This document shows, in pieces, positions 30,113 through 61,596 of a stretch of DNA of 64,000 nucleotides. How positions within the stretch are numbered: position 1 is the first letter of the stretch; each line of letters starts with the position of its first letter. Source of the DNA: Candidatus Margulisiibacteriota bacterium (lineage in GTDB: Bacteria; Margulisbacteria; WOR-1; JAKLHX01; JBAZKV01). The position numbers were made by a program, and so were the translations under genes. The notes under the pieces were generated by a model, which was not told where the DNA came from, searched no databases, and saw only the letters and a list, made by a program, of their open reading frames with translations. Location of the stretch: NCBI GenBank assembly GCA_041650635.1, contig JBAZKV010000004.1:534-64533 (forward strand). The letters run 5' to 3'.

Positions 30113-31490
30113 CGAGCATGTGGGTGGAGCAGGAGATGCAGGGGTCATATGCTCTGGCAAGCATTTCCAGGTTTAATGTAATGTCTTCTGTAGAGACGCC
30201 CTGCAGGACGTTTCTACCTGCCACGCCCGCACCATTAATTAATTCCGGCACCAATTTTCTCATATCTTCCTCAAGATTAGCCATGTTCTGGTTGGTTGGT
30301 ATCACGCAATTTGCGGCTGTAATCAGCCCTTTTTCATCTATCGTGTATTCATGGAACAGGGTGCCTCTGGGGACCTCGGCGCAGCCAACGCCAGTATTGG
30401 GCCTGTAGGAAGGGGTCTGATCCTTCTTTGGCCAAGAGCTTACGATAGATTTGGACTCATCAAGTCCTTCGCTAAGGACTTTTTTAAGTATCTTGATAGA
30501 TTCCTCAAGACAGTGCACCCATTCAACCAGCTGAGCGGCCGTGTTCAAATACGGATTGCTGCAGGGGGCCTTTAATCCGAGTTCTTTGGCTGTATCCTTG
30601 CCCCTTTTATTCAACTGGGCAAAATTGTTGTTAAACCTTGAAAGAGCTCCGACCGCATAAGGTTTGCCTCCTATGTGGGCGACCTTTGCCCTTGAATAAT
30701 CAAGCACTGTTTCACTCAAAAGGGCCCTGTAGTCTTTGTCCGTGGCCTTGCGTTGCCCGTTAACTGCAAGAGAGCCTTCGTATAGCGCGTATTCCTTATC
30801 AGCTTTAAGCGAAAGATACTGTGTCGGCCTCTCATATTCGGGGAACTCAAGGGTCTTGAACACCTTTAAGGTTTCCTCGGCGTCGCCGCGGGCTTCCAGC
30901 ATCATAGAATACAACTTCTCAAGATTCTCCCTGGAAGGGAGCTTGGTAAGGCCGCCTATCACATAAGTAATGGGGTGAATGTGTCTTCCCGCCAGGACCT
31001 CGCCGGCAAAATCGCTCATTTTTTTCATGCGGAGAGCGCGCTCTATCATGGACTTGTGCGTCTTGATAAGAGGGAAAATGCTTTTGACTCCCAGAAGGTC
31101 GGGGGCAACAAGGATGTAGATATGAAGGATATGGCTGTCCAGTATTTCTGTGTTAAGGAGCAGCTTTCTGAGCATTACGGTCTGGGCTGAAGGGACTATT
31201 CCCAGGACATCTTCTCCTGCCTTAACAGAGGCCAAGGTGTGTCCGCAGGCGCATATGCCGCAGATCCTGCTGGTAATATGCTGGGCTTCCCAGATAGAGC
31301 GCCCTACAAGCATGGACTCAAAGAATCTGGGGGATTCTATGACCTGGAATTGGCATTTTTCCAAAGCGCCGTTCTTAACATCCACGACTATGCTGCCATG
31401 GCCCTCCACCCTTGTAAGGTAGTGGACATCTATCTTAACGTTCTTTGCGCTATTTGAACTCGTTGTCATATTTTGCTCCGGTGGAGTCAT
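30096..31490 (-). CDS. hydA: [NiFe] hydrogenase large (alpha) subunit, cytoplasmic group 3 type
   Basis: The N-terminal Ni-binding motif RICGICACGH and the C-terminal DPCISCSTHMLDVKFI (DPCxxCxxH) are present. Length is 464 aa. Confidence 0.92.
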   Translation of the reverse strand: MTPPEQNMTTSSNSAKNVKIDVHYLTRVEGHGSIVVDVKNGALEKCQFQVIESPRFFESMLVGRSIWEAQHITSRICGICACGHTLASVKAGEDVLGIVPSAQTVMLRKLLLNTEILDSHILHIYILVAPDLLGVKSIFPLIKTHKSMIERALRMKKMSDFAGEVLAGRHIHPITYVIGGLTKLPSRENLEKLYSMMLEARGDAEETLKVFKTLEFPEYERPTQYLSLKADKEYALYEGSLAVNGQRKATDKDYRALLSETVLDYSRAKVAHIGGKPYAVGALSRFNNNFAQLNKRGKDTAKELGLKAPCSNPYLNTAAQLVEWVHCLEESIKILKKVLSEGLDESKSIVSSWPKKDQTPSYRPNTGVGCAEVPRGTLFHEYTIDEKGLITAANCVIPTNQNMANLEEDMRKLVPELINGAGVAGRNVLQGVSTEDITLNLEMLARAYDPCISCSTHMLDVKFI

Positions 31491-32217: not shown

Positions 32218-33067
32218 GGCATTCCCCCTTAAATTGCTTTATCTGCTCATAGGTAAAAACCGGTCCGCTCTGGCACACATAAGTTCCTTCTATCTGGCAG
32301 TGGCCGCACTTACCGAGCCCGCATTTCATCCTGCGCTCAAGAGAGACCAGTATCTGGTGGTCCGGTATCTTTTTCTCCAAAAGATGCACTATCACAAATT
32401 TATACATTACCGGAGGGCCTACTACCACTCCGTAAGTTCTTTCGGGAATGATATCCACTCCCGGTATCAGGGTCGTTATCAGCCCTACATTGCCTGCCCA
32501 TTCATCGTCAGGTTTGTCCACGGTGCAGCTGAACTTTATCTCGGACCTTTTCATCCACTCGCTGGTCTCCCTGCCAAAAAGGATCTCTTTAGGGGTTTTG
32601 CATCCCAGAAGTATCTGCACATTTCCAAACTCATTCCTCTGGGCAGTGACATATCTGATAAGGGATCTCAAGGGAACAAGCCCAAGCCCGCCCCCTATGA
32701 TCAAAAGATCAAAGCCCGACATGCTGTCCACGGGGAATCCTTTGCCGTAAGGGCCCCGTATCCCCACCAGATCGCCTTTTTCGAGCCTGTGAAGCTGCCT
32801 GGTGAGCGAACCCACTGCACGGACCGTCAGCTCAAAATAACCTTTGTCGGTAGGGGATGAGCAAACAGAAATAGGAGCTTCTCCAAAACCGAAGACCGAG
32901 ACCATTACGAACTGGCCCGGCATATGTCCAAGCTCCCTTTTTCCTTCCAACTCTATGCGGAAAAGTTTTTCCTGCTCTCCCTCCATCCGGGTTTCAACGA
33001 TCTTTCCCTTCATCTGGCCATAGGGAAAGGAGCCCATTTTTTCTAAAAGCTCTTTTCTGTCCATCAC
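32204..33067 (-). CDS. hydG: Hydrogenase gamma subunit, an FAD/NAD(P)-binding oxidoreductase with a C-terminal 2Fe-2S cluster
   Basis: It has a PyrK/sulfhydrogenase-gamma-like fold. The C-terminal cluster motif is CGLGKCGHCQ. Confidence 0.82.
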   Translation of the reverse strand: MMDRKELLEKMGSFPYGQMKGKIVETRMEGEQEKLFRIELEGKRELGHMPGQFVMVSVFGFGEAPISVCSSPTDKGYFELTVRAVGSLTRQLHRLEKGDLVGIRGPYGKGFPVDSMSGFDLLIIGGGLGLVPLRSLIRYVTAQRNEFGNVQILLGCKTPKEILFGRETSEWMKRSEIKFSCTVDKPDDEWAGNVGLITTLIPGVDIIPERTYGVVVGPPVMYKFVIVHLLEKKIPDHQILVSLERRMKCGLGKCGHCQIEGTYVCQSGPVFTYEQIKQFKGECLEKA

Positions 33068-34095
33068 GCAACCTCTTTCAGCAGCGCGTTCACGGTCTCT
33101 TTAAGGTCGATACCGGCCATGCAGGCCCTGGTGCATCTTCCGCAGCCCGTGCAGAAATACCTGTTGAATTTGTCCGCAGGGTATTTAAATTTTCTATAAT
33201 ATCTGTGTCTTTGCCTTAAGTCGCGGCCTTTTCTAAAATCATGGCCCCCGGCGACTTTTGCAAAATCCTCCATTTGGCAGGAATCCCAGATCCTGTACCT
33301 TGTGCCGCTGCCAAGGTCAAGCGACAATTCGTCCTCGACATTAAAGCAGTAGCAGGTAGGGCAGACCGAAGTGCAATTGCCGCAGCCCACGCATCTTCTC
33401 CCAGTATCCTCCCATACCTTGGCGTTAAAACCTTTATCAAAGGCCTCATACACTTTGGAGACGGGAGCGTCCAATTCCTCTTTGAAGACCCGGTTCTTTT
33501 CTTCTCTGGCGCTGTCCAGCGCTTTCATGTTTGAGCTATCTGCCTTCTTGATATAGGAGAGTCCTTTTATAAGAGCTTCCCCCTTTTCGGAATTAACATG
33601 GATAATGTAGCTGTCCCCTATATCAGTAAGCATCAGATCGTAACCGCCCCTTGGCAGATGATTGCCCATAGAGGCGCATGAGGCGTGGCTGTCGCAGTAT
33701 TTCATGCACTCGAAGCCTATGATGGTCATCCTGTCTTTTCTGCTAAGGTAATACGGGTCGGCCGGCTGCTCCCTAAAAACGGCATCCATGCACTGTATGC
33801 CGGCTATGTCGCAGGTGTGTACCGCGAAAAGGATGAACTCTTCGGGTTCCTTGAGGTCCCTTTCTTCCTTAAGGGTCTTTGTGTCGAACTTTGCCAGCTT
33901 CTCTTTCTGCGGAAAATAATACTTTTTTGGCGGAAGGATCGTAGGGATATAGTCCAGGCAGATCTCGCTCACATCCTTTATGGGTCTGAAAACATAGAGA
34001 TTTTCTTTCTTTTTGGGGGCATAAAAGCGGGCCTTTTTCTGAAGGTGGCGGATCCATTTTTCAAGGTCCGTTTTTTTGACCAACGCGTATTTCAT
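33064..34095 (-). CDS. hydB: Hydrogenase beta subunit (Fe-S protein)
   Basis: A 343-aa protein with several Cys clusters (CVGCGNCTSVCPTCYC, CTGCGRCTRAC). It is the first gene of the hydBGDA order typical of group 3b sulfhydrogenase-like enzymes. Confidence 0.82.
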   Translation of the reverse strand: MKYALVKKTDLEKWIRHLQKKARFYAPKKKENLYVFRPIKDVSEICLDYIPTILPPKKYYFPQKEKLAKFDTKTLKEERDLKEPEEFILFAVHTCDIAGIQCMDAVFREQPADPYYLSRKDRMTIIGFECMKYCDSHASCASMGNHLPRGGYDLMLTDIGDSYIIHVNSEKGEALIKGLSYIKKADSSNMKALDSAREEKNRVFKEELDAPVSKVYEAFDKGFNAKVWEDTGRRCVGCGNCTSVCPTCYCFNVEDELSLDLGSGTRYRIWDSCQMEDFAKVAGGHDFRKGRDLRQRHRYYRKFKYPADKFNRYFCTGCGRCTRACMAGIDLKETVNALLKEVA

Positions 34096-34390: not shown

Positions 34391-35440
34391 ATGGTAGATA
34401 TGGGCAAAAAGATCACAGGCCAGACCCCGCAATTCCTCTCGCATACGGCATGGCTTACAAGCGGCCCATTCTCGGTACGCCTTGGCAGACAGGTCTCGCG
34501 CCTCATGTGTTCGGACAGAGAGCTTCAGGGAATGCTGGCGCCAAAAGTGAACGGCGACGCAAGGTTGAGCCTGTTCCATGATGTCAGGACAAGGGTCCGG
34601 GAGATCTACGGAGGCATATGGACCGGGGCTGTTAATGCTTACGATACTTTCAAAACCGCTAATCCGGAATTATTTGCCCAGCTTGTTGATAAAGGGTATG
34701 TAGACAGAGCGGGAAATATGCTTCAAGGGCTGGGAAGCGTCCGCAAGGCTGCGGATATAAGAATTAATGCCGGCACATCAGAAAAAAGTCATATTTTCGA
34801 TTTGCTGAGGATCTGCTTTCTTCCATTCCAGATGGCAGTAGAACACGGACTTGACACATTGCCTTGCCCGGGATACCTTATGGGGCTTGCCCAGGAATGG
34901 CCTGTAACGGATGACGAGATGTTGGGAATGGCTTTACGGCACGAGGCAGGTCACATTGCGGCAGGCTTTATTTCTGAGGAGGACATAATCGGACTTAACG
35001 GCCGGTTTTCTAGAGGTCCTTTCGAAAGAGAGGTTCTGGCCACTCTTATAAACGCATTCGAAGACAATAAAGTTGTCCGCTTCCAGCTTATGAACGGCTT
35101 TAGGGGTTCGGCCGAGGGTTATGTGGAAATTTCGATCGGTATTTTCAGGAGAAGGCTTCAGGTCATGCAGGCTCGGGACAAATGGATGATCCCGTTCCAT
35201 TATCTTTCCCATGTCTTTATGGTGCCGCTTGCCTTTGAAATGGTACAGGACCCGGGCGCGGCAGATATATCAAAAAGAGTAGACAATCTATACAAGAAAT
35301 ATGTTGACGACAAAAGCAGGGCTCTAATAAAAAGACTGGAAGAGGCAGCAGGCCTAATTATAGAAGGTCCTGAATGGACCAGGCCGGAGGTCTTTAGTTC
35401 AATATTTGATCCCGTAGCCCTATGGGCAAAGACCCTTTAA
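34391..35440 (+). CDS. Hypothetical protein of 349 aa with an HExxH-like motif (ALRHEAGHIAAG)
   Basis: A long ORF divergent from the hydrogenase operon. It has no TM segment and no motif beyond HEAGH. Confidence 0.55.
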   Translation: MVDMGKKITGQTPQFLSHTAWLTSGPFSVRLGRQVSRLMCSDRELQGMLAPKVNGDARLSLFHDVRTRVREIYGGIWTGAVNAYDTFKTANPELFAQLVDKGYVDRAGNMLQGLGSVRKAADIRINAGTSEKSHIFDLLRICFLPFQMAVEHGLDTLPCPGYLMGLAQEWPVTDDEMLGMALRHEAGHIAAGFISEEDIIGLNGRFSRGPFEREVLATLINAFEDNKVVRFQLMNGFRGSAEGYVEISIGIFRRRLQVMQARDKWMIPFHYLSHVFMVPLAFEMVQDPGAADISKRVDNLYKKYVDDKSRALIKRLEEAAGLIIEGPEWTRPEVFSSIFDPVALWAKTL

Positions 35441-35492: not shown

Positions 35493-37748
35493 TTACAACT
35501 GCTTTTTTGCGTTCCCCCTCTTGTTCATATAGACCGCAAGAATGACCAGCAGCACGGACACTGTAATGATCACGGTCTTAACCGCCGGAGAAACCCCGTG
35601 AAATATGAGCGGCACTATCAAAAGCGCCACAAGGTTCATGACCTTGATCAGAGGGTTAAGGGCAGGGCCTGCGGTGTCTTTGAACGGATCCCCGACAGTA
35701 TCGCCGATGACCGCGGCTTTGTGGGCGTCAGAACCTTTTCCTCCCAGCATCCCCATCTCAATGGCTTTTTTAGCGTTGTCCCAAATGCCGCCTGAATTGG
35801 CAAGGAGCACGGCCAAAAGCTGTCCGACCAGAATTGCTCCTGCAAGAAAACCGCCCAGCGCAGCCGTGCCAAGGGCAAAGCCGACAGCTATCGGAGTGAA
35901 TATTGCAAGCAGTGCCGGGCCGATCAACTCCTTTTGTGCGGCAGATGTTACTATGTCAACGCACTTAAAATATTCCGGCTTGTTCTTCTTTTCCATTATT
36001 CCGGGTATTTCCCTGAACTGCCGCCTTACTTCTTCCACGACCATCTGGGCAGCCCTTCCCACAGCCTTGATAAGGAATGACGAGAACAGGAAGGTTACGG
36101 CGCCCCCGATAAGAAGGCCGATGAACACATCGGACATGTTCAATTGAATACCGGTCTCAAGCAGGCCGCCTTCTTCCACGAAAGACCTGAACAGGGCTAT
36201 CGCAGCAATGACAGCGGTCGCTATCGCAAAACCTTTGGTAAGAGCCTTTGTGGTGTTGCCAACGGCATCAAGTTTGGAGACGATCTTTTCGGCCTTGCTT
36301 CCCTGGCCTCTGTAAGTACCGGACATTTCAAAGATCCCGTTAGCGTTGTCGGCGATCGGCCCGTAAGTGTCCATTGCCAGGATAAAACCGGTCGTTGTCA
36401 ACAGTCCCAGTCCCGCAAGGGCGACCCCGTACGCCGACAGTGCCATATTGCCCCCGAAGATGGCCATGGAGGCAAAAATGGTGGCTGATATTGCGACAAT
36501 AGACCAGACCGAGGATTCCTGCGCCAGAGCAAAACCGGAAAGGATCAATGTTGCCGGCCCGGACTTGGCGGACTCAACGGTCTCTTTAATGGGATTGTTC
36601 TCTGTGTGGGTAAAATAATTGGTCAGCATCTCTATTACCACTGCCAGCACTATTCCGACAAAGGTGGCAAGAGCAAACCTCCACCATTCTGCGCCCGGTA
36701 TCGGATAGTTAAGATAGAGATAACAGATAGCGACAAAACCGATTATCGAAGTTATAGAGGCTACCCAAAAACCAAAATTGATCGGCTTCATCGGGTCCCC
36801 GATCTCTTCTGTGTCTTTGCCTCTGACGGACCATGTGCCTATGATGGAAGCGAACACTCCGACTGCTCTGACAAGAAGCGGGTACATGACAAGCTTCAGC
36901 GCCATAAGGGCTGCCATTCCGCCAAAAAGCGCCTGAAAGCCTTTGTCCGCAAGCGTTGCCGCTCCCAATATAAGGGCAGCGACAAGGGTCACCTCGTAGC
37001 TTTCAAAAACATCCGCTGCCATTCCGGCGCAGTCCCCGACATTGTCCCCGACATTGTCGGCTATGACCGCCGCGTTCCTGGGATCGTCCTCCGGTATGTT
37101 CTTTTCCACTTTTCCTACCAGGTCCGCGCCGACATCAGCCGCTTTGGTGTAAATGCCGCCGCCTATCCTCATGAACAGCGCAACAAGGCATCCGCCAAAA
37201 CCAAAACCAACCAGGACCTTCATGGCATCCTGTTTAAAGATCAGGAATATGAGCGTGGCGCCGAGCAGCCCAAGCCCCACGGTGAACATGCCCGATACGG
37301 TACCGGCCTCAAAAGCGACCTCAAGGGCTTTCTTAAAGCTGGTAAGAGCGGCATTTGCCACTCTGACATTTGCCCTTACCGCAAGGTTCATTCCCACAAA
37401 GCCAGCCCCGGCCGAAGCAAAAGCCCCCAAAAGGAAGGCAATGGCTATGCCAAAGGGAAGCACGGGGTTATCAGGAAATACGGGGACATACATGAAATAC
37501 AGTCCCACAGTGATAAGCGCTATGAATATGCCCATCACTTTGAACTGCCTTGTAAGATAAGCGGCAGAGCCTTCCTGTATGGCTTTTGCCACCTCGATCA
37601 TTTCCTTAGAGCCTTGGGGCGCCCGGAGGACCTTCCAGGCCATGTAAGCTCCGTACAACAGGGCAACAAGCGCGGAAGCGAGCACCAGCCAAAGAAGACC
37701 GGATTCAAGCGGACGCAGAGCGGGCAGAACTATGGATGCTTCTGACAT
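35493..37748 (-). CDS. hppA: Membrane-bound H+(/Na+)-translocating pyrophosphatase
   Basis: A 751-aa polytopic protein with conserved H+-PPase motifs (GGIYTKAADVGADLVGKVE, DNVGDNVGDCAGMAADVFESY). Confidence 0.95.
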   Translation of the reverse strand: MSEASIVLPALRPLESGLLWLVLASALVALLYGAYMAWKVLRAPQGSKEMIEVAKAIQEGSAAYLTRQFKVMGIFIALITVGLYFMYVPVFPDNPVLPFGIAIAFLLGAFASAGAGFVGMNLAVRANVRVANAALTSFKKALEVAFEAGTVSGMFTVGLGLLGATLIFLIFKQDAMKVLVGFGFGGCLVALFMRIGGGIYTKAADVGADLVGKVEKNIPEDDPRNAAVIADNVGDNVGDCAGMAADVFESYEVTLVAALILGAATLADKGFQALFGGMAALMALKLVMYPLLVRAVGVFASIIGTWSVRGKDTEEIGDPMKPINFGFWVASITSIIGFVAICYLYLNYPIPGAEWWRFALATFVGIVLAVVIEMLTNYFTHTENNPIKETVESAKSGPATLILSGFALAQESSVWSIVAISATIFASMAIFGGNMALSAYGVALAGLGLLTTTGFILAMDTYGPIADNANGIFEMSGTYRGQGSKAEKIVSKLDAVGNTTKALTKGFAIATAVIAAIALFRSFVEEGGLLETGIQLNMSDVFIGLLIGGAVTFLFSSFLIKAVGRAAQMVVEEVRRQFREIPGIMEKKNKPEYFKCVDIVTSAAQKELIGPALLAIFTPIAVGFALGTAALGGFLAGAILVGQLLAVLLANSGGIWDNAKKAIEMGMLGGKGSDAHKAAVIGDTVGDPFKDTAGPALNPLIKVMNLVALLIVPLIFHGVSPAVKTVIITVSVLLVILAVYMNKRGNAKKQL

Positions 37749-41469: not shown

Positions 41470-41895
41470 ATGCCGGCAAAGGCCGCAAAAAAATCTGAAG
41501 CAAAAAAACCAAAGAAAGAAAAAATAGCGGGAAAGATCGACCACTATTTTGACAAGATCAAAGTCATAACAACTACACTTAAAGCACCCATAAAGGTCGG
41601 GGACATTATACACATAAAAGGGCACACAACTGATTTTGTACAGCCCGTGGGCTCCATACAGATAGAACATGAAAGCGTGCAAAAGGCAAAGAAGGGGGAA
41701 GGGGTTGGGATAAAGGTCAAGGAATTCGTAAGGGACAACGATATCATCTATTTTGCGGACAAAAAGAGCGCCGATGCACAAAAACCGCAGATCCAGCCCA
41801 TGCTATTGCAGAAGTCCGCGGCGGTAAAAACATCGGTCCCGCGCACGCCATCCAGGGATGCCGCTTCCGGCAGGCCCAGATTCCTCAGTTTCTGA
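41470..41895 (+). CDS. Small Lys-rich protein with a beta-barrel resembling EF-Tu domain II
   Basis: The N-terminal tail is MPAKAAKKSEAKKPKKEK. The stretch KAPIKVGDIIHIKGHTTDFVQPVGSIQIEHESVQKAKKGEGVGIKV matches the G-x-V/I-x-I-x-G...SIQ...V..A..G..VGI pattern of translation-factor domain II. Confidence 0.45.
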   Translation: MPAKAAKKSEAKKPKKEKIAGKIDHYFDKIKVITTTLKAPIKVGDIIHIKGHTTDFVQPVGSIQIEHESVQKAKKGEGVGIKVKEFVRDNDIIYFADKKSADAQKPQIQPMLLQKSAAVKTSVPRTPSRDAASGRPRFLSF

Positions 41896-43030
41896 AACCC
41901 GGCGGAGGGTAGAGCCTGTAGTGGGGGATATCGCTTGAAAACGGGATAGAGGCTACGCCCAGCCGGGTTTCAAGTTCTTTCTGTGTCAGAATCCTGCCGG
42001 CAGTGTCAATGAAACGGCCCCTTGATACCCCGGTGCCGCTCATCAGTTCATTGAACAGGTTTACGCAGATACCGTCGGCTTCTTCGAAAAAATCTGCGAC
42101 TTCCGCGTCATAATCCGGCCCGTATGTTTCGATCAGCAGGTCAATGTCATCCCTTGAACACACAGGGCTGCTTCCTGCAACGGTGCCGATAAGCCATATG
42201 CTCTTGATTCCTTTAAGGATCCTTCCGGCGGCGCGCGACAAAAGAGATGCAAGATTATACCTGAAAAGCGCGTGAGTGTCGGGGTCCTGCTCTTTCAATC
42301 TTTCCGCAGCGGCTTCCCAGTCCTGTCCTCCGCTCCTTCTGTCGCAGCATGAAAGGGCCATCCTCCAGGCTGGCTCAAGGTCCGGCGGCTGCCCGCTTTC
42401 CCTGTCAAACAGCGACAACCTGACTATCAGGTCGGCAAGGAAATCTTCGGCAAAGCCTTTCCTGCTAGACCAGGCGCCTGAAAGATCGAGATGCCCCAGC
42501 CATTTTCTGAACCCGTACTCTCTTGAGAAAAGGCTGGCGTCCATATGAAGGCGTAAATTAGAATTGTCGGAGCCTATCCGGTATTTGGCCAGGCCAAAAG
42601 CTCTGCCGGTATCCTCCGAAGAATAAAAAGTGACAGTTGCCTTAGGCGCCGCAAAGCCGGTCTTAATAGATATGTTGACAGGATACTCATTTGCATCAGT
42701 GATCACCGAAAAAGAGGAAAACGCTCTTGAGCGCTCGCCAAATTGCACGCCTGACAGATGGGATATCTGCTCCCCGCCGGGGCCTTGAGCAAGGGCGCCA
42801 AAAAACGAAACCAGGCACTCGAAACCGTCAAGCATTGCCAAGCAGCGGGGTCTGTTACCCCGGTCTTCAAGGCAGGCGCCGATACCTTCCGCTAAGGGAG
42901 AAAGACCCCGGACAAAGGCGGACCGGGATCCTATCCAGGAAGAAGCCTCCAGTCCTTTTGCGGAAGCCTTAAGCAGAAAGTCTGCCCTGGCCAGGCGCTC
43001 CTTTAATAAAGAATAGCTAGCTGCCCTCAT
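41885..43030 (-). CDS. Hypothetical protein of 381 aa with a C-terminal nucleotidyltransferase-like motif
   Basis: A long ORF. Near residue 280, IGTVAGSSPVCSRDDIDLLIE resembles the Pol-beta-fold nucleotidyltransferase GS...DxD signature. The remaining ~270 aa are unrecognised. Confidence 0.55.
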   Translation of the reverse strand: MRAASYSLLKERLARADFLLKASAKGLEASSWIGSRSAFVRGLSPLAEGIGACLEDRGNRPRCLAMLDGFECLVSFFGALAQGPGGEQISHLSGVQFGERSRAFSSFSVITDANEYPVNISIKTGFAAPKATVTFYSSEDTGRAFGLAKYRIGSDNSNLRLHMDASLFSREYGFRKWLGHLDLSGAWSSRKGFAEDFLADLIVRLSLFDRESGQPPDLEPAWRMALSCCDRRSGGQDWEAAAERLKEQDPDTHALFRYNLASLLSRAAGRILKGIKSIWLIGTVAGSSPVCSRDDIDLLIETYGPDYDAEVADFFEEADGICVNLFNELMSGTGVSRGRFIDTAGRILTQKELETRLGVASIPFSSDIPHYRLYPPPGFRN

Positions 43031-52824: not shown

Positions 52825-53115
52825 GTGCAGGACATAAAACTATCAAACAAGACCGCGCAGGGCGATGTTGTACCTCTTTTTGGCGTGACCATGGTCTATG
52901 CAAAGACGGACAAAGGCTTTGTGGGCTGCGGACTGTTCGATGTCAATGTTTTTGACAAATTCGGCTGTCCCGCGGCCAAAGTAAGATCCCCCAAAGGACC
53001 CATAACGGATATGCAGGGGCTCCTTGACTCGCCGGTGGTGGAGGCCAATTCCTGCGCAAAGGCGGGGGGCCTTCAAGAAGGCATGACTGGCAGGGATGCC
53101 CTTGAAAAATTATGA
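52825..53115 (+). CDS. Small conserved protein, possibly DUF1805/YunC-like
   Basis: A 96-aa protein containing GFVGCGLFDV...GCPAA...ANSCAKAGGLQEGMTG. The family assignment is from memory only. Confidence 0.4.
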   Translation: MQDIKLSNKTAQGDVVPLFGVTMVYAKTDKGFVGCGLFDVNVFDKFGCPAAKVRSPKGPITDMQGLLDSPVVEANSCAKAGGLQEGMTGRDALEKL

Positions 53116-53528
53116 ATTATTACTGGCTTGCCGTTCTTACTTCGGTCATCTGGGGCATTGCGCCTATACTAGAAAAGCTTGGCCTTTCCAGGGTTGAGCC
53201 GCTGACCGGATTGTTTTACAGGAGCCTGGCGGTACTTCTCGGGCTTATATTCCTTGGTTTCTTTATGATCAAGCCTCATGAACTGCGGAGTGCGGACCTT
53301 AGATCGATCGGCCTCATAATGGCAGGCGGTTTTCTGGCAAGCTTTGTTGCCCAGGTGCTTTTCTACCACAGCCTTAAGATCGGGGATGTGTCAAAAGTCG
53401 TTCCTATTTCCGGCAGCTATCCACTGGTCGCCTTTATTCTGGGCGTCATCCTCCTTGGGGAAGCGATCACCCCAGCCAAGATAGCAGGCTGCCTGTGCGT
53501 GATACTCGGGATATGGCTGCTGAAGTAA
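53112..53528 (+). CDS. EamA-like small membrane transporter (DMT superfamily, single EamA domain)
   Basis: A 138-aa protein with 4-5 TM helices. The N-terminus reads MNYYWLAVLTSVIWGIAPILEKLGL. Confidence 0.6.
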   Translation: MNYYWLAVLTSVIWGIAPILEKLGLSRVEPLTGLFYRSLAVLLGLIFLGFFMIKPHELRSADLRSIGLIMAGGFLASFVAQVLFYHSLKIGDVSKVVPISGSYPLVAFILGVILLGEAITPAKIAGCLCVILGIWLLK

Positions 53529-53611
53529 AGGTCATATACACCTCAGAACCTGTTAATGCCAGTTTGTTGGAATGGCTGGCAGGAAGATCTTCGTAATTCT
53601 TTTGTGCCGGG

Positions 53612-55420
53612 ATGAAATCCGGCCGCATTTTTATAGAGAAACCATTGATGGACATACTGGCAACAAAAGTAGGCCCTGGCAGGGCGATAGGTCCTTACCG
53701 GGCAGCTATCACCGATATTAGGCGGCAAAACGGCAGCATAGTCTTTTCGGTTGATCTCCAAGGAATAGGGGTCAGAGATATCTTTGGTTATAAAGTCAAG
53801 GGGATCCCCGTCAAGACCGAGCTTAGGGATAGGGTGCTCGGCAGGATCAAAAGGGCCGAGTTTAGAGGGCTTGAAAGCGCCCCGCGTATTTTTAGTGAAT
53901 TTTTTGCGGAGTGGAAGAGCACAGCGGTGGATGCGGACTACTATGTTATCCGTAATGATCCTCTTATCTGGGGACTGGCCGGCCTGGTCGGCAGTGAAAA
54001 AGTGGCGCTGGTGAGCAAGTCGATCCTTTTTGGGCCTTCGACGGCGGAAAAACTCATAGGGATATTCCATGAAGACGCGGAGCTTTTTGCCATGATGAGA
54101 TGGAGTGGCGGTACAAGCTGCGCGGACCGGGCGGAAGACTTTTTGGAAGACACATATCATGATCCCGGCATAATTCTTACCGACGACCTTGGGCGCCCTG
54201 TTTCAACTGATGCACGGGTCGATACCCATGTTTTTTTAAGAGGAGCGGGATGGAAAACCAGGGGGCTCCAGCCGGCAATGTTCAACATCTTCAAATACTC
54301 GGAACCCTTTGACCCGGAGCAATTTGCAGAGGATTTTATTGGGGAGCTTGCGTACGAGTACCGTTTAAGTAACACAGAAGCCCTCCCCGACCAGACAGAA
54401 AAACTGATCAGGCTCAACGCGGGAACCTTACTGGGCCAGCATGCTTTGCACGATGTGCTGAATAGAGGAATGCTGTTCTTTGGCCTTCAAGACTGGATGG
54501 ACCCGGCGGCAAACTACGCCCTGTCCCGCAAAATAGCACGAATGTCGCTTTCTACTCAAGAGGATTTTGAAGAAACCTCCGGCTCCAAGCTGTTTCTCCC
54601 GATACAGCCCATGGAAGGCGGCCGCAAGTTTTGGATGATGAGCCTGCTTAATGAAGGTCGCCTTGCCGAAGGCGAAGGAACAGAAGCGAGATGTTTTTTA
54701 ATGGAGCGCTTGAGCGGGGAACATGTTGTGGTTAAGGCCTATCATCCCCAGGCGCCCCAGGTGCTTAGCGATGAGGAGCTTGATGTCCGGGCAGGATTGA
54801 TAAGGAGGCTTTCGGGCATCCGGGTCCCGGGAGCAAGATATGCGAGGATATATTCAAGGTCCATTCCGGACAGCAAAAGAAGGCTCCATTTTTACTGCTA
54901 CGAATACATCGACAGGATGTACCTTCCTTCCGAAGCAGGGGCCAAAATGACGCCGGAAGAAGGCAGGCACAAGAACAGCAGGGCGATAGCGCTTTTGCAC
55001 CTTACCCATATGCAGGATTTTGTGCACGGGGACCCGACTTCTAAGAACATAATACTATCAAAGAGCGGAGAAGTTGTGTTCATTGATTATGAGACCAGGG
55101 CAATGGATCTGCAGAAGTTCGCTCCTGATGTTAGGTTCCGGCTCATCCTTAAGAACTGGGCGCTTTTTTGGAACGAGGCGTGCCTCGAATGTCCCGGGCT
55201 AGAAAACGATCTGGCCTTAAGGGAAGTGCTTTCCAGGGCGGTTAGGGAAGAAGCTAGAAGACTATTAGGGGAAGCCGTTAGGGATATGGATGATCATGGT
55301 GTTATCGGCTCTGTCAGAGGCCAGCTCGAGATCATTGCTCATGACATGAACCGTATTCTAAAGGGCGGAGCGGTTATAATTAACCTTGCCGATGATCTTT
55401 CAGGAACGCTGCGTCCCTAA
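53612..55420 (+). CDS. Hypothetical protein of 602 aa with a C-terminal protein-kinase-like (APH/Kdo-kinase-type) motif
   Basis: FVHGDPTSKNIILSKSGEVVFIDYE resembles the HGD-x3-N catalytic loop and the I-D-F/Y-E metal-binding motif of the APH / choline-kinase / Kdo-kinase fold. Upstream, VVVKAY is a candidate nucleotide-positioning Lys. The N-terminal ~420 aa are unrecognised. Confidence 0.65.
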   Translation: MKSGRIFIEKPLMDILATKVGPGRAIGPYRAAITDIRRQNGSIVFSVDLQGIGVRDIFGYKVKGIPVKTELRDRVLGRIKRAEFRGLESAPRIFSEFFAEWKSTAVDADYYVIRNDPLIWGLAGLVGSEKVALVSKSILFGPSTAEKLIGIFHEDAELFAMMRWSGGTSCADRAEDFLEDTYHDPGIILTDDLGRPVSTDARVDTHVFLRGAGWKTRGLQPAMFNIFKYSEPFDPEQFAEDFIGELAYEYRLSNTEALPDQTEKLIRLNAGTLLGQHALHDVLNRGMLFFGLQDWMDPAANYALSRKIARMSLSTQEDFEETSGSKLFLPIQPMEGGRKFWMMSLLNEGRLAEGEGTEARCFLMERLSGEHVVVKAYHPQAPQVLSDEELDVRAGLIRRLSGIRVPGARYARIYSRSIPDSKRRLHFYCYEYIDRMYLPSEAGAKMTPEEGRHKNSRAIALLHLTHMQDFVHGDPTSKNIILSKSGEVVFIDYETRAMDLQKFAPDVRFRLILKNWALFWNEACLECPGLENDLALREVLSRAVREEARRLLGEAVRDMDDHGVIGSVRGQLEIIAHDMNRILKGGAVIINLADDLSGTLRP

Positions 55421-55454: not shown

Positions 55455-55976
55455 ATGGCAAACCCCAGGGCTATCCATAGGATAAGTTACGGCCTGTATG
55501 TGGTCAGCTCTGTTTCTGCGGGCAAACTGAACGGGCAGATCGCCAATACGGTATTCCAGGTCACCTCAGAACCGGCCAAGCTGGCCGTATGCATAAATAA
55601 ACAGAACCTTACTCACCAATATATTTCTGAAAGCGGAGCGTTCTCGGTTTCCATTCTCTCTCAAGATGCCCCGATGACCTTTGTTGGCAAGTTTGGCTTT
55701 AAGAGCGGCAGGGACACGGATAAGTTCAAGGATACCGGCTACAAGATGCTGGGAAATGGATGCCCGGCGGTCATGGATCATTCGGCCGCTATAATAAGCG
55801 CAAAAGTTGTCAGCCAATGCGACACCGGCACCCACACGCTCTTTATCGGTGAAGTAACCGGGGAAGAGATCCTCAGCGATGCCATACCCATGACATACGC
55901 CTACTACCACGAACATCTAAAGGGCAAAGAGCCCAAAAACGCTCCAACCTACCGGGGCCCGGAAGCGCAAAAATGA
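55455..55976 (+). CDS. Flavin reductase-like domain protein (flavoredoxin-type)
   Basis: A 173-aa protein. The N-terminus reads RISYGLYVVSSVSAGKLNGQIANTVFQVTSEPAKLAVCI. Confidence 0.75.
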   Translation: MANPRAIHRISYGLYVVSSVSAGKLNGQIANTVFQVTSEPAKLAVCINKQNLTHQYISESGAFSVSILSQDAPMTFVGKFGFKSGRDTDKFKDTGYKMLGNGCPAVMDHSAAIISAKVVSQCDTGTHTLFIGEVTGEEILSDAIPMTYAYYHEHLKGKEPKNAPTYRGPEAQK

Positions 55977-56905
55977 TCCAGGTGCTGACCAACGCCGTGT
56001 TCCCCATATTTTTCCTGATAGGTCTCGGATATCTGGCAAGAAGGTGCGGCATTCTCAAGCAGGGGGACGAGAGGGTCTTTAGCGCATATGTGTTCTACTT
56101 TGCCCTGCCCGCTTTTTTTCTTGCCAATTTGAGCTCTCTTAGTTTTTCGAAGGAAGTCCTGCGTTTTATAGCGGCGGCGCTTGCCCCGACTTTTGCCGTC
56201 ATGATACTCTATCTGGCGGCCTATGTTTTGCTGAGGTTCGAGCGGGACCTGCTGTTCAAGCTGCTAATAAGCACTGTGTTCGGGAGCTATGCTTTTTTCG
56301 GAGTCCCCTTCATCCTTTTTGCTTTTCCCGGAACTCAGGGCGAGGCGCTGGCGGCGCTGTCTTCTTCGGTAATGGCGATGGTCAGTGTCGGCATTTCGAT
56401 AACGGTGCTGGAAATTCACAGGCAAAAGGGGAAAGATTTTATTAAGGCGGTTGCAACGGTGGCAGGGTCTCTTTCAAAGAACCCTCTAATTCTGTCGGTA
56501 TTGGCGGCCTTTTCAATGTCGCTGCTTGGCATAAGGCTGCCTTCCCCTGTATCGCATATGCTCCATATGCTTGGAGCAACAACATCAACGGTGGCGATCT
56601 TCATGCTGGGGGTCTTTCTCTATGGGAGGAGGTATGGACATCTTTGGGAGGGTTTCTTACTGGCCTTGCCGCGGGTTATCCTGCTGCCGGCTCTTGCCGT
56701 GCTTTTTACAGGACTGATCGGGACCTCGGGGCTGGACGCAACGGTGATCATAATGATGTCGGCCATGCCGGTTGCCATCTCTACGATAGTCCTCAGCGAA
56801 AGATACGATTTTTACAAGGAGACCGTAGCTTCTCTCATTCTTTTTTCCTCGCTTGGGGCTATAATATATCTGCCGGTATGGTTTTTTGTGTCCGGTGCAA
56901 GATAA
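55973..56905 (+). CDS. AEC-family (auxin efflux carrier / malate permease-like) transporter
   Basis: A 310-aa protein with about 10 TM segments. The N-terminus reads MIQVLTNAVFPIFFLIGLGYLARR. Confidence 0.82.
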   Translation: MIQVLTNAVFPIFFLIGLGYLARRCGILKQGDERVFSAYVFYFALPAFFLANLSSLSFSKEVLRFIAAALAPTFAVMILYLAAYVLLRFERDLLFKLLISTVFGSYAFFGVPFILFAFPGTQGEALAALSSSVMAMVSVGISITVLEIHRQKGKDFIKAVATVAGSLSKNPLILSVLAAFSMSLLGIRLPSPVSHMLHMLGATTSTVAIFMLGVFLYGRRYGHLWEGFLLALPRVILLPALAVLFTGLIGTSGLDATVIIMMSAMPVAISTIVLSERYDFYKETVASLILFSSLGAIIYLPVWFFVSGAR

Positions 56906-56915
56906 GGAGGGCTTT

Positions 56916-58094
56916 ATGACGGCAAGAAAGATAACGGAAGGAATTTTTTCTGTAGGTTCCATAGATTGGAACAGGCGCCTGTTCGATGAACTGATACCGC
57001 TTCCGGACGGCACTTCGTACAACTCGTATATAGTAAAAGGAAGCCAAAAGACAGCGCTGATGGACAGCGTTGATCCGCCAAAAGAAGCCGAATTAAAACA
57101 AAACCTTAAAGAGCTCGGCATCGACAGGATAGATTATGTTGTCTGTCACCATGCGGAGCAGGACCACTCCGGGTCCATCGGAAAAGTGCTGGAATGGTTT
57201 CCTGCGGCTAAGGTGGTTGCTAACGACAAATGCAAGGGTATGCTCAAAGACCTTTTGCTTCTCAAGGACGAACAGTTCATGGTTATCTCGGACAAGCAGA
57301 CGCTTTCTCTCGGAGATAAAACTATGGAATTTGTCTTTGCACCTTGGGTGCACTGGCCGGAAACGATGGTAAGCTACCTTAAGGAAGATAAGATCTTATT
57401 CTCCTGCGACTTTTTTGGCTCACACAGAGCCCAGAGCGGGCTATATGTCGAAGACGGTGCAGAAGTCCTGCGAGGGGCCAAGCGATACTACGCGGAGATC
57501 ATGATGCCCTTTAGGGCGGCGATAAAAGGGCACCTGGAAAAACTGAAGGCTTACGATGTAAAAATGATCTGTCCAAGCCACGGCCCGGTCTACCGGGAGC
57601 CAGCGCTTATTATTGATGCCTACAAAGACTGGACCGGCGATGCCGTCAAAAATGAGGTCATTGTGCCTTATGTTTCGATGCACGGAAGTACGCAGGTTAT
57701 TGTGGACCGCTTTGTAGACTGCCTTATAAAACGGAATGTCGGGGTAAAACCGTTCGACCTGTCAAAAACAGATATTGGGGAGCTTGCAATGAGCCTGGTG
57801 GACGCGGCAACAGTTGTCATTGGAAGCCCGGCCGTCCTGGCAGGTCCGCATCCGCTTGCGGTGTATGCGGCTTATCTTGCTAACGCACTCAGGCCAAAAA
57901 CAAAATATGTTTCCATAATCGGTTCGTTCGGCTGGGGAAGCAAACTGGTAGAAGTGCTGGCAGGCATGCTGACAAATCTGAAGGTTGAGGTAATAGATCC
58001 TGTAATAGTGAAAGGCTATCCAAAAGAGGCAGATCTTGCGCAGGTAGAAGCTCTGGCCGACAAAATAGCAGATAGGCACAGATCGATATCTTGA
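56916..58094 (+). CDS. fprA: Flavodiiron protein (FprA-type O2/NO reductase) with metallo-beta-lactamase-like and flavodoxin-like domains
   Basis: HHAEQDHSG is the di-iron site motif, and a C-terminal flavodoxin-like domain is present. The start is at 56916, preceded by AAGGAGG. Confidence 0.9.
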   Translation: MTARKITEGIFSVGSIDWNRRLFDELIPLPDGTSYNSYIVKGSQKTALMDSVDPPKEAELKQNLKELGIDRIDYVVCHHAEQDHSGSIGKVLEWFPAAKVVANDKCKGMLKDLLLLKDEQFMVISDKQTLSLGDKTMEFVFAPWVHWPETMVSYLKEDKILFSCDFFGSHRAQSGLYVEDGAEVLRGAKRYYAEIMMPFRAAIKGHLEKLKAYDVKMICPSHGPVYREPALIIDAYKDWTGDAVKNEVIVPYVSMHGSTQVIVDRFVDCLIKRNVGVKPFDLSKTDIGELAMSLVDAATVVIGSPAVLAGPHPLAVYAAYLANALRPKTKYVSIIGSFGWGSKLVEVLAGMLTNLKVEVIDPVIVKGYPKEADLAQVEALADKIADRHRSIS

Positions 58095-58142
58095 CAATTG
58101 CAACAAATATGTGTAGAATACTTTATTGTAATCATTACATAT

Positions 58143-58547
58143 ATGGAAGAATTAAAGGATATTCTTGAATCAAGAGGGATAAAGCCAACCTATCAAAGGC
58201 TGGCTATATTCAAATATATCCATGACCACAAGGTTCATCCCACAGCTGACAGGCTCTACCGGAACCTGATTAAAATTATTCCTACCATGTCTAGAACTAC
58301 GATCTATAACACTCTGTCAATGTTTGTCGAGAAAGGCCTTGCAAGGACAATTCTTATATCCCCGACAGAGGTTAGATATGATTCCGATATGTCAACGCAC
58401 CATCATTTTTGGTGTGAAAAGTGCGGTAGAATCGAAGATTTGTTCTTTGACTGCGAAATAGCAAGAAAGGGGGAGATAGAAGGCAACATTATCAAAGAGG
58501 TCCATGGCTACTTTAAAGGTATTTGCAGGGACTGCAGAACCCATTAA
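58143..58547 (+). CDS. perR: Fur-family regulator, PerR-like
   Basis: TYQRLAIFKYIHDHKVHPTADRLY is the HTH region. HHHFWCEKCG...CRDCR are the metal sites. It is embedded in a peroxide-stress cluster. Confidence 0.82.
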   Translation: MEELKDILESRGIKPTYQRLAIFKYIHDHKVHPTADRLYRNLIKIIPTMSRTTIYNTLSMFVEKGLARTILISPTEVRYDSDMSTHHHFWCEKCGRIEDLFFDCEIARKGEIEGNIIKEVHGYFKGICRDCRTH

Positions 58548-58567
58548 TAATAGAAAGGAGAGATTAA

Positions 58568-58726
58568 TTGAAGAAATATATATGCCTGGTCTGCAATTAT
58601 ATCTATGACCCAGAAAAAGGGGACCCCGACGGGGGAGTGGCGCCGGGCACAGCGTTCGAAGCTATCCCCGACAGTTGGGTTTGCCCCGTTTGCGGAGCGT
58701 CAAAAGACCAGTTCAAGGAAGTGTGA
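58568..58726 (+). CDS. Rubredoxin
   Basis: Read from the sequence with a TTG start after AGGAGA: (M)[51 protein letters not shown]. Two CxxC pairs are present. Confidence 0.85.
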
Positions 58727-58786
58727 TAACAGAAAGATTCGAACAGAGCCGTTCAAAAAACTGCAATGAACATAAGGAGGTAAAAA

Positions 58787-59167
58787 ATGGCGGTCAAAAA
58801 GAAATTGGAAGTATATAAATGCGGGGTTTGCGGCAATATTGTCGAAGTGCTTTTTGTCGGGGGGGGAAACCTTGTCTGCTGCGATAAGCTGATGCTTTTG
58901 CAGACAGAGAATACGGTAGATGCGGCACAGGAAAAACATGTGCCTGTGATAGAAAAGGTTGACGGGGGGATAAGGATCAAGGTCGGCTCCGTCGCGCACC
59001 CAATGGAAGATAAGCACTATATCCAGTGGGTTCAGGCTATTGTCGGGGACAAGACCTACAGGGAATTCCTTAAACCCGGGCAGGCTCCCGAAGCGTTCTT
59101 CCCGCTGAGCGGAAGCAATATCTCCGCAAGGGAGTACTGCAATCTGCACGGGCTCTGGAAAAGCTAA
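58787..59167 (+). CDS. dfx: Desulfoferrodoxin (2Fe superoxide reductase)
   Basis: The N-terminal desulforedoxin-like region is [10 protein letters not shown]...LVCC. The C-terminal SOR centre is EKHVPVIE...H...H. Confidence 0.9.
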
Positions 59168-59212
59168 AGTAAAGACACCCCGCCGGGGCGTCTCAATAGA
59201 AAGGAGAAATCG

Positions 59213-59788
59213 ATGAAATCAGTTAAGGGAACAAAGACCGAAAAGAACCTGTTGGCTTCGTTTGCGGGAGAATCCCAGGCAAGGAACCGCTATACCTATT
59301 TTGCCAGTGCGGCCAAAAAGGAAGGCTATGAGCAGATCTCGGCTATTTTTCTTGAGACAGCCGACAACGAAAAGGAGCATGCAAAAAGGTTCTTTAAATA
59401 TCTGGAGGGAGGCGAGGCCCAGATAACTGCTTCGTATCCGGCAGGCATCATTGGGACCACGATACAGAACCTTGAAGAGGCGGCAGCCGGAGAGAATATG
59501 GAATGGACAAAGCTGTACAAAGAGGCGGCAGAAGTCGCGGACCAGGAAGGCTTTCCTGAGATCGCCGACCAGTTCAGGGAAATAGCCGAGGTCGAAGCCG
59601 AGCACGAAAAAAGGTACAGAAAACTGCTGTCCAATATAAAAACATCAACTGTTTTCAAAAAGGATAAGCCGGTCAAGTGGCACTGCAGGAACTGCGGCTA
59701 TGTCCATGAAGGCAGCGAGGCTCCAAAGGAATGCCCGGCCTGCAAGCATCCTCAGGCTTATTATGAAATACTGTGTGAAAACTATTGA
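59213..59788 (+). CDS. rbr: Rubrerythrin
   Basis: Di-iron four-helix ExxH motifs are present. The C-terminal rubredoxin-like motif is [10 protein letters not shown]...CPACKHP. Confidence 0.93.
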
Positions 59789-60411
59789 AAAAACTGATCG
59801 CTTCCGTTAACTCCCTTAAAAAGGGGGATATCGGTAACATAGTCTCGAAAAGGATAAAAGAGTTCAAGGCGCTGGGGATCGAACCGGCGCCTGAGCTTTT
59901 TAAGGAGCTTTGCTTTTGTATTCTTACCGCCAACTTTAATGCCGAAAGAGGGATCAAGATACAGAAAGAACTTGGCGAGAACTTTTTGGAGGACAAAGAG
60001 ATAGAGCTTGCCTTAAGGCTTAAGAAAGCGGGGCACAGGTTCCCTAATACCAGGGCAAAATATATCGTTGAGGCAAGAAAGCACAAGAATATACTTAAGG
60101 ATGCCATAAAAAACATCGGGAACCAGAGTGAACTGCGCGATTACCTGGTGAAGAAGATAAAGGGGATCGGATATAAGGAATGCAGCCATTTTCTGCGCAA
60201 CATCGGATTTGACGAGTGTGCCATAATCGATTTTCATATCGTTGATATTTTGAGGGAGCACAAACTTATCGAGCCCGTAAAAACGATGTCCAAAAAGACA
60301 TATCTTCACATAGAATCTATCCTTAGACAGCTTGCAAAAAAACTGGGGATTACCCTTGCGGAGCTGGACCTGTATCTGTGGTACCTTGAGACAGGAAAAG
60401 TGCTCAAATAA
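59785..60411 (+). CDS. ogg: 8-oxoguanine DNA glycosylase/lyase (Ogg2 archaeal-type, HhH-GPD)
   Basis: A 208-aa protein. [17 protein letters not shown]...[28 protein letters not shown] carries the HhH-GPD motif. Confidence 0.78.
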
Positions 60412-60414: not shown

Positions 60415-61596
60415 TTAAAACAAGAAGTCCAGAGAGAACCTTGTTCCGGAGCGAACAGAGCTTTTTCCGGAGGCCACGAACCACTGTCCCGAAACTTTGT
60501 TATTTGATATCCTTGACCAGCTTAATCCGTCATATTCCACTTTGACACTGTCAGGCTCCAAAAGAATTCTGGGAAGTCCCTGTCCTCTGGTCTGCCATCC
60601 CCTTTGTTTGACAAAACTCTCCATAAGAAGACGGTTAGGGTCTTTGGGAAGGCCCTTCCCAAGGTCCGTGGCTATGACCTTGATCCCTGACAGTAAAGGA
60701 TCTCCCATTTGAGGATAGACCTCAACAATGCCTCCGTTGGCATATTCGGCCATGTTCATTATTAGTTCTACGAGGATATCATCAAGCTGCTGAGCCCGGC
60801 TTTCCCCGATGAAAGAAGCAAATCCCATAACATATTCATTCATCGGCCTGCAGAGCAATGCTGCTTCTTTTCCGGTCAGATGAGGCCTGCTTGGCGCTTC
60901 GTATCTGAACGGCAGACGCCGCAGAAGACCAAGAACAGGAGCGTTGAATCTCTCGATAAAGTCCTCCGCGGAAGGCCATACGCCAGACAGGTCTATTCCC
61001 CGGCACCAGGAATGAGAGCCCCCGGGATCATAAATGCTTAAATGAGCATGGTCTTTCCGGCTCCTTTTGCCGAGAAAGCATATGCCCTGAGGGATCATTG
61101 GATAATTCGGATCCTCTGCCGAAAAAATATCCATTATAAAGTGCGGATCCTCTTTTCTGCTGCAGAGGCTGATCTCAGCGCTTATCGATGGGAAAGGAGC
61201 AGGGATGATGCAGCTGGTCCTATGTGTTTCGGCGCCCGTCAGGGCCACAGCCGACTCGGCGAACATAGTCTCGCTGCTGCTGCCTTTGAAACAGGCAAGG
61301 AACCTTGTGAACGCGTCAAAGCCCGACAGCCTAAGACTCGCGGCCTTTGTCCCGCGGGCAAGACCTGCCTCCAGCAGTCCTGCGGCGCTGGACATAGAGC
61401 GCATTAGAGGGCGGTCAAACGACAGCCTGTTCAGGGCTCTTGTTATGCTTGTCATTCCATAGCATATATCGTCAGATAATACTTTGGATTTCGGATGGGA
61501 GCAAGGGACAAATGTTATACACTCATCTATAATTCCCTTAGTAGAGGTGTAAAAACCCGTTTTCCGGGAAAGGTTAAAGGTGTCAGATACGGTCAT
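60415..61596 (-). CDS. Hypothetical protein of 393 aa with a C-terminal GHKL-type ATPase domain (HATPase_c / anti-sigma-factor-kinase-like)
   Basis: The N box is ELIMNMAEYAN, the G1 box is DLGKGLP and the G2 box is GQGLPRI, all in the last ~130 aa. The N-terminal ~260 aa are unrecognised. Confidence 0.6.
   Translation of the reverse strand: MTVSDTFNLSRKTGFYTSTKGIIDECITFVPCSHPKSKVLSDDICYGMTSITRALNRLSFDRPLMRSMSSAAGLLEAGLARGTKAASLRLSGFDAFTRFLACFKGSSSETMFAESAVALTGAETHRTSCIIPAPFPSISAEISLCSRKEDPHFIMDIFSAEDPNYPMIPQGICFLGKRSRKDHAHLSIYDPGGSHSWCRGIDLSGVWPSAEDFIERFNAPVLGLLRRLPFRYEAPSRPHLTGKEAALLCRPMNEYVMGFASFIGESRAQQLDDILVELIMNMAEYANGGIVEVYPQMGDPLLSGIKVIATDLGKGLPKDPNRLLMESFVKQRGWQTRGQGLPRILLEPDSVKVEYDGLSWSRISNNKVSGQWFVASGKSSVRSGTRFSLDFLF

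Follow-up and report, generated by a model that had tools for sequence, protein, structure and literature searches.

The gene at positions 53612-55420 of a 64,000-nucleotide (nt) stretch of a Candidatus Margulisiibacteriota genome (assembly GCA_041650635.1, contig JBAZKV010000004.1, positions 534 to 64,533; the whole stretch is referred to below as the window) encodes a protein of genuine orphan architecture, in which a divergent minimal kinase is joined to an orphan domain; the protein is found in a genus-level clade of Margulisbacteria. The C-terminal part of the protein is a true protein-kinase-like (PKL) domain. It is a minimal, atypical kinase without an activation segment and, judged from sequence, appears to represent a PKL family that is new and very divergent and whose nearest weak profile matches are to Bud32. 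We consider it likely that the protein is a soluble two-domain enzyme restricted to its lineage, an ATP-dependent phosphotransferase in which the PKL domain would be catalytic and the N-terminus and/or the C-terminal helices would serve in substrate recognition or regulation.

The uninterrupted open reading frame (ORF; 53612..55420, plus strand, 602 amino acids, aa) had been noticed in an earlier reading of the same DNA made without database searches (the sequence-only reading), together with the motifs VVVKAY, HGDPTSKNIIL and VVFIDYE, and all of these are indeed present. Translation probably starts at the second ATG, at 53648, giving a coding sequence of 590 aa plus stop (53648..55420, plus strand), with the in-frame alternative at 53612 giving 602 aa. 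This choice is favoured because an identical public protein (MFA5097350.1, annotated "hypothetical protein" in a Candidatus Margulisiibacteriota metagenome-assembled genome, MAG; 100% identity to the 590-aa form) and the remaining full-length relatives, also of 590 aa, have gene calls that begin at this ATG, and because the first ATG is overlapped by a terminator-like hairpin followed by a T-run (53606..53623, plus strand), which lies between the stop codon of the upstream EamA gene and the ATG at 53648. The hairpin comes from a scan by consensus only, which found sites no more numerous than in shuffled sequence. Residues are numbered here on the 590-aa protein; the addition of 12 converts them to the numbering of the 602-aa ORF. 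In the latter numbering the three motifs occupy positions 372-377, 472-482 and 488-494, and not ~430-530 as first reported, and they are preceded by a Gly-rich loop, GEGTEA, at 354-359. The N-terminal region, taken to be 420 aa long, really covers about 320-335 aa, the domain boundaries having been misplaced by ~50-100 aa, and a helical tail of ~105 aa beyond the kinase core had gone unmentioned.

The protein-kinase-like catalytic core extends over residues ~321-485 (54608..55102, plus strand, as are all features of the gene given below), from the N-lobe to the metal-binding Asp. It carries in succession the Gly-rich loop GEGTEA (residues 342-347; 54671..54688), Lys363 of VVVKAY (54734..54736), which is the predicted ATP-anchoring β3 lysine, the catalytic loop HGDPTSKN with His460, Asp462 and Asn467 (55025..55048), and IDYE (residues 479-482; 55082..55093), in which Asp480 is the equivalent of the metal-binding Asp of DFG. 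In a MAFFT alignment of 107 sequences (A3), Asp462 forms the sole invariant column, and G344, K363, H460, N467 and D480 all fall in near-invariant columns: GEGTEA is aligned with the near-invariant Gly of Hanks kinases, Lys363 stands in the kinase Lys column and Asp480 in that of the DFG Asp. Across all six translated frames of the 64-kb window, the pattern H[GR]D-x4-N-x8-22-[ILVMF]D[FYWL][GEDS] has a single occurrence, and only 2 of 20,000 shuffles of the protein contain it; the motif signal thus exceeds what chance would give.

An exhaustive phmmer search of 1.84e9 representatives clustered at 50% identity returned the protein's own cluster and a single distant match, P0009, with an E-value of 4.5e-4 for the whole library. 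P0009 is a 1469-aa protein with two Pkinase domains, and in BLASTP alignments our protein matches each of these in the canonical register, from the Gly-loop through Lys, hinge and HxD..N to D(F/Y). In these alignments GEGTEA is paired with GKGGFA and GQGDVA of the two P0009 domains, VVVKAY with VTVKVL and VVLKFL, HFYCYEYID with YFYAYVYVP and HFYVLDFID, FVHGDPTSKNIIL with LLHRDVNPKNIIV and VLHRGIKPSNILL, and VVFIDYE with AYLSDFD; HRDVNPKN of P0009 is the counterpart of the catalytic loop HGDPTSKN. A non-circular comparison used a profile built from the family only, over its C-terminal 278 aa (A4), and another that was built separately from 61 bacterial Ser/Thr kinases (A5). With hhalign the two were aligned with a probability of 96.6% and an E-value of 5e-10 over 122 columns, from the β3 Lys to the DFG position. 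P0009 and the hhalign result make Hanks-type Ser/Thr kinases the only statistically significant relatives. The claim that the C-terminal region holds a kinase-like domain, with Lys, HGD-x4-N and metal-binding Asp in the right order and spacing, is thus borne out by phmmer, hhalign and BLASTP.

All matches to curated libraries were below threshold, yet each of them was to a kinase. In Pfam these were APH (15.6 bits, E = 0.014, residues 353-495 against profile positions 64-196; cut-off 23.2), Choline_kinase (11.9 bits over 26 residues, with a cut-off of 29 and a likeness confined to the HGD..N/IDYE stretch) and, weakly, ABC1; Pkinase gave no match at E<=1 and the Kdo/WaaP family PF06293 gave none. 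Several NCBIfam models of Bud32 (TIGR03724, PRK14879) scored 22.8-24.5 bits, with a best E-value of 1.6e-5 and a cut-off of 125, and the Kae1-Bud32 fusion model PRK09605 was matched over its positions 343-471; if the fusion model is counted, Bud32 accounts for 6 of the 11 NCBIfam matches. The others included KdkA (PRK01723; 10.8-12.9 bits, cut-off 142), APH_3p, that is APH(3') (12.4 bits, cut-off 205), the kinase regions of LanL/LanKC (16-18 bits, catalytic loop only, cut-offs 575-650) and PknB, which was weak. A PHROGs kinase family was also weakly matched. RIO sequence profiles gave no match in the Pfam and NCBIfam searches. Among sequences in the Protein Data Bank (PDB) the top match was yeast Bud32 (4ww5), whose HGDLTSSNIVL is aligned with HGDPTSKNIIL.

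Structure prediction agrees with this picture. From the single sequence, AlphaFold gave an uninformative model (predicted local distance difference test, pLDDT, 35). With an input made up of the family and 104 kinases retrieved by a mixed seed alignment, pLDDT rose to 85-97 at about residues 350-545 and stayed below 50 over most of the N-terminus. The confident part has the bilobal kinase fold on which the sequence-only reading had made its proposal depend. Foldseek placed M. tuberculosis PknB on top in the PDB (E = 8e-8), RIO kinases were among the nearest structural matches, and a viral fold library returned generic kinases only. Since Hanks kinases dominate the alignment used for the model, the fold result is supportive and partly circular and the ranking of families is soft; the independent evidence lies in the hhalign and phmmer statistics. 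Motif order and spacing, significant homology and a bilobal fold together place the domain in the PKL superfamily (Pfam clan CL0016).

Beyond the core, residues 486-590 (55103..55417) form a C-terminal tail which is predicted to be helical, with helices at 493-514, 522-547 and 552-570 and a pLDDT of 87-91 up to about residue 545, and for which Pfam gave no match. Asp480 is followed after about 12 residues by the long helix 493-514. At the places where Hanks kinases have the activation segment, the P+1 loop and the αF motif DxWSxG, the alignments show gaps, and neither an APE motif nor a GHI substrate-docking subdomain was found. Atypical kinases (Bud32, RIO, APH and Kdo kinases) are characterised by HGD in place of HRD, by a Gly-loop with Ala as its last residue and by having no activation loop.

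The N-terminal orphan region (residues ~1-320; 53648..54607) had been described as unrecognised, and so it proved. Scanned whole and in halves, residues 1-320 had no Pfam match at E<=10, nor did they match NCBIfam or, with the family profile, any PDB sequence at the same limit; the phmmer search found no relative of this region outside its own cluster. It appears to be soluble and mainly α-helical: both AlphaFold runs, at low confidence, show a β-hairpin at about residues 20-36 followed mainly by helices, and the region is free of internal repeats and transmembrane segments and does not resemble the C-terminal half. Three candidate identities were set aside. A degenerate second kinase domain was rejected on the hhalign probability against the kinase profile (0.14%) and the lack of N-to-C or internal repeats. 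A Kae1-Bud32-like fusion was rejected in view of the lack of any TsaD/Kae1 signal in the N-terminus even at E<=10. A LanL/LanKC-like lyase-kinase was rejected, the match being limited to the catalytic loop, with no cyclase domain and a matchless N-terminus.

The gene is under purifying selection. Compared with its 89%-identical orthologue in a sister lineage (L001), the 1773-nt frame is intact and without insertions or deletions at a nucleotide identity of 90.5%, and substitutions are in excess at third codon positions (41/33/95 for the three positions). The ratio of nonsynonymous to synonymous substitution rates (dN/dS) is 0.24 overall and 0.28, 0.12 and 0.25 for the N-terminal 330 aa, the kinase core and the tail respectively; four neighbouring genes have lower values (0.05-0.12). 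GC content (0.51) and GC at third positions (0.56) both match those of the neighbours. The gene is therefore real, native and moderately constrained, and its protein evolves faster than the products of the flanking genes. A separate observation concerns its synonymous divergence from the orthologue, which over 53648-55420 is lower than in the flanks 52825-53528 and 55455-56905 (dS 0.26 vs 0.38-0.68; third-position identity 0.84 vs 0.65-0.78), with a higher dN. This combination could reflect a more recent exchange of the gene between lineages or a codon constraint.

The distribution of the protein is very narrow. A word-indexed search of 5.8e9 clusters returned only two 90% clusters, with 97% and 89% identity, and two metagenome scans for more divergent members found the 89% lineage again and no others. 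When GTDB species representatives were scanned with the neighbouring flavin reductase, 80 loci were returned, only one of which, a contig of the sister lineage with a 91%-identical flavin reductase (next best 54-61%), includes our gene; it is missing beside the flavin reductase homologues of the other 79, including those of another Margulisiibacteriota MAG. Two ORFs of similar length proved unrelated: a 589-aa ORF from L050, a locus of another Margulisiibacteriota, encodes a radical SAM protein of the YgiQ type and is not a homologue, and a 590-aa ORF of the window (27344-29116), considered as a paralogue, is a ribonucleotide reductase. An origin from a mobile element was rejected, since the composition is native and tblastn searches of phages and plasmids gave no match. 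We conclude that this is an accessory gene, a single cluster native to a genus-level clade of Candidatus Margulisiibacteriota.

The neighbours named by the sequence-only reading, a 138-aa EamA protein upstream (53112-53528) and a Flavin_Reduct protein downstream (55455-55976), are both in place. The full gene order, all on the plus strand, is radical SAM, PFK, DUF1805, EamA, the kinase-like gene, flavin reductase, an AEC-family transporter, an FprA-like flavodiiron protein, a Fur/PerR-family regulator, small redox-protein genes (rubredoxin and desulfoferrodoxin in the orthologous locus L001), rubrerythrin and the 8-oxoguanine glycosylase Ogg, and it is the same in the 89% lineage. Directly downstream of the gene, a stretch of this series (55455-60411, plus strand) forms a cluster for the detoxification of O2 and reactive oxygen species. 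Only 34 nt separate the gene from that of the flavin reductase and the consensus scan showed no terminator-like site in this gap, so that co-transcription with the O2-detoxification cluster is plausible; the gene may share a transcript with those for the flavin reductase, FprA, the PerR-like regulator and rubrerythrin.

In the sister lineage, a 2.1-kb insertion resembling an insertion sequence (IS) lies between the EamA gene and the kinase-like gene (L003 1608-3778; L084 3705-5875). It contains a 262-aa ORF on the minus strand with no Pfam family and a 409-aa ORF resembling a transposase, in which HTH_32/HTH_28 and, weakly, rve_3 are matched. Past the insertion, similarity to the window resumes exactly at 53612 (junction 53611/53612), the position of the upstream ATG. 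In two assemblies of this lineage (L001 and L002) there is a break a short way upstream of the gene, which is what a neighbouring repeated IS element would lead one to expect.

The favoured interpretation can be put in molecular terms. Residues ~321-485 and the three helices that follow would together make up a minimal atypical PKL domain, resembling Bud32, RIO and APH-type kinases, in which the residues for ATP-Mg binding and γ-phosphate transfer (GEGTEA, Lys363, Asp462, Asn467 and Asp480) all seem to be retained; the choice of substrate would be made by the 320-residue N-terminus, by the C-terminal helices or by both. As to the kind of activity, we give a slight preference to a Ser/Thr kinase that acts on proteins or on itself, or to a Bud32-like ATPase, over a small-molecule kinase. 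We lean towards a protein kinase because the significant relatives are protein kinases, the curated matches are Bud32-like and the catalytic loop holds a basic residue, Lys466 at D+4 (HGDPTSKN), as in HRDVNPKN of P0009. Such a residue is commoner in protein kinases than in APH or choline kinases.

Several observations weigh against this interpretation. No curated family threshold is reached, the best scores being 24.5 of 125 bits for Bud32 and 15.6 of 23.2 for APH. The column of the canonical αC Glu holds Arg381 in both the MAFFT and the hhalign alignments, and a Lys-Glu salt bridge would have to be made by Glu376, Glu377 or Asp379, about one helical turn upstream. The connection with oxidative stress comes from adjacency in two closely related lineages and, as the IS-like insertion replaces the upstream region in the sister lineage, the native promoter is uncertain.

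The sequence-only reading had assigned the domain to the APH/choline/Kdo-kinase branch and pictured an enzyme acting on a sugar, lipid, aminoglycoside or alcohol, with an N-terminus that recruits the substrate, which might be lipopolysaccharide (LPS). The motifs lend themselves to this idea: HGD-x4-N with IDYE after it is similar to the Brenner motif and the choline-kinase motif, and small-molecule PKL kinases typically lack an activation loop. The best Pfam match is indeed APH, and KdkA and APH(3') are weakly matched in NCBIfam. All of these scores nevertheless fall far under the curated cut-offs, Pfam offers no Kdo match, the Bud32 models score above APH and KdkA, the significant relatives are protein kinases only, and the Lys at D+4 is shared with P0009. 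The organism does carry lipid A genes (LpxB 9999-11240, a FabZ-LpxA fusion 11146-12459 and LpxD 15141-16088), which upholds that part of the LPS context; these are ~38 kb away and have no functional link to the gene, next to which there is no LPS, sugar or antibiotic-related gene. A small-molecule kinase of this branch therefore appears rather unlikely.

Less likely again is the bolder proposal that the N-terminal 320 residues are a new domain, possibly with a new fold, which together with the Bud32/RIO-like minimal kinase would define an undescribed bacterial kinase family whose substrate or signal is perhaps tied to the oxidative-stress operon, for example as a redox- or O2-responsive phosphotransferase.

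The faster evolution of the protein and its restricted occurrence could also be those of a stand-alone conflict or anti-phage kinase comparable to PD-T4-6, whose N-terminus would sense infection and whose kinase would phosphorylate host or phage proteins. PD-T4-6 models were the only defence matches in PADLOC (best E-value 1.8e-4, residues 354-496 against profile positions 41-184 of 476), P0009 joins its two kinase domains to AAA/SMC-like and FGE-sulfatase domains in an architecture typical of conflict systems, and the dN/dS above that of the neighbours, the very narrow distribution and the IS-like insertion immediately upstream in the sister lineage all fit. The PADLOC match is, however, limited to the generic kinase core, and the flanks are housekeeping and oxidative-stress genes in conserved order with no defence genes among them. 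With the native composition and the lack of phage or plasmid homologues, we regard a role in defence as improbable.

We take an equally doubtful view of a Bud32-like ATPase or pseudokinase scaffold, which would hydrolyse or bind ATP to regulate a partner and would not transfer phosphate to a substrate. The prominence of Bud32 among the NCBIfam matches and as top PDB sequence match speaks for it, as does Arg381 in place of the αC Glu; in addition, with ~320 aa ahead of a Bud32-like domain, the protein has a layout similar in its dimensions to that of archaeal Kae1-Bud32 fusions, whose model PRK09605 is matched. Against this stand Bud32 scores of 22-25 bits, far below the cut-off of 125, an N-terminus that is predicted to be mostly helical and gives no TsaD/Kae1 signal, and phosphotransfer residues that are all intact, so that nothing argues for lost catalysis. 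Finally, the lack of a family assignment, the orphan status of the protein and the raised dN/dS might suggest a chance ORF or a decaying remnant, which is extremely improbable given a 1.77-kb frame without insertions or deletions across lineages 9.5% apart in nucleotides, a dN/dS of 0.24 overall and 0.12 in the core with changes concentrated at third positions, significant kinase homology and the retention of every catalytic residue.

If the protein is an active phosphotransferase, as we favour, the bacterial kinome would gain a very divergent minimal kinase family with a new accessory domain. Its source, Margulisbacteria, is an anaerobic sister group of Cyanobacteria that has received little study; a literature search for Margulisbacteria plus kinase returned nothing relevant. 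That the gene heads a cluster for O2 detoxification points to a regulatory link that can be tested. The protein is also one of many lineage-restricted orphans with a recognisable catalytic domain and offers no functional clue past "kinase". For annotation, the names Kdo, WaaP, APH and choline kinase should all be avoided for this protein, and the limits first drawn for its domains have to be moved.

Some other features of the window deserve mention. The genes dnaN (1611-2750) and dnaA (2984-4354; together 1611-4354, minus strand), with mnmE (6571-7938) and mnmG (16578-18365) nearby, place it at or near the chromosomal replication origin. The apparent FabZ-LpxA fusion (11146-12459, minus strand) is a 437-aa ORF combining a FabA/FabZ-like dehydratase, an LpxA hexapeptide region and Acetyltransf_11, and the lipid A cluster also holds a GT4 glycosyltransferase (13963-15144) beside LpxB and LpxD. 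Two adjacent ORFs for ribonucleotide-reductase large subunits (24443-26770, 775 aa, with a TSCPD domain, and the 590-aa ORF at 27344-29116; both on the minus strand) each have the all-α and barrel domains and are possibly tandem paralogues. Genes at 30096-31490, 33064-34095 and 35493-37748 (all minus strand) encode, respectively, the large subunit of a NiFe hydrogenase, a 4Fe-4S dicluster protein and a membrane H+-pyrophosphatase, in keeping with the hydrogen-based anaerobic metabolism described for Margulisbacteria (PMC6349859). At the thresholds used, Pfam assigns no family to four sizeable ORFs (349-393 aa): 19473-20522 and 34391-35440 on the plus strand, and 41885-43030 and 60415-61596 on the minus strand, the last with a faint HATPase_c match only (E = 0.054).

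Membership of the protein in the APH, choline/ethanolamine, Kdo/WaaP, Bud32 (KEOPS) or LanKC/LanL families, or among the Hanks-type kinases (PF00069/PF07714), is not supported. With the APH, choline and Kdo kinases (PF01636, PF01633, PF06293) it has in common HGD-x4-N, the I-D-aromatic-E motif and a C-lobe that is helical and has no activation loop; those enzymes are half its size (KdkA is ~240 aa vs 590 aa). In contrast to the RIO kinases (Rio1, 1zp9, and Rio2, 1tqi; PF01163), it seems to have neither the RIO-specific flexible loop nor a winged-helix domain. Bud32/PRPK, the kinase-ATPase of KEOPS, shares the minimal C-lobe without an activation segment, and its Gly-loop, GAEA, like GEGTEA, ends in Ala. 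Our protein nevertheless scores ~100 bits under the Bud32 cut-off, has IDYE where Bud32 has IDFG, comes from a bacterium whereas KEOPS is archaeal and eukaryotic, lacks a Kae1-like partner domain or neighbour, and carries in addition the 320-aa orphan N-terminus and the ~105-aa tail. Compared with the PknB-like Hanks kinases (PF00069), it has HGD and not HRD, no Lys at D+2, and no activation segment, APE, DxWSxG or GHI subdomain, while the Gly-loop, the Lys, HxD-x4-N and Dxx of the two follow one another in the same register.

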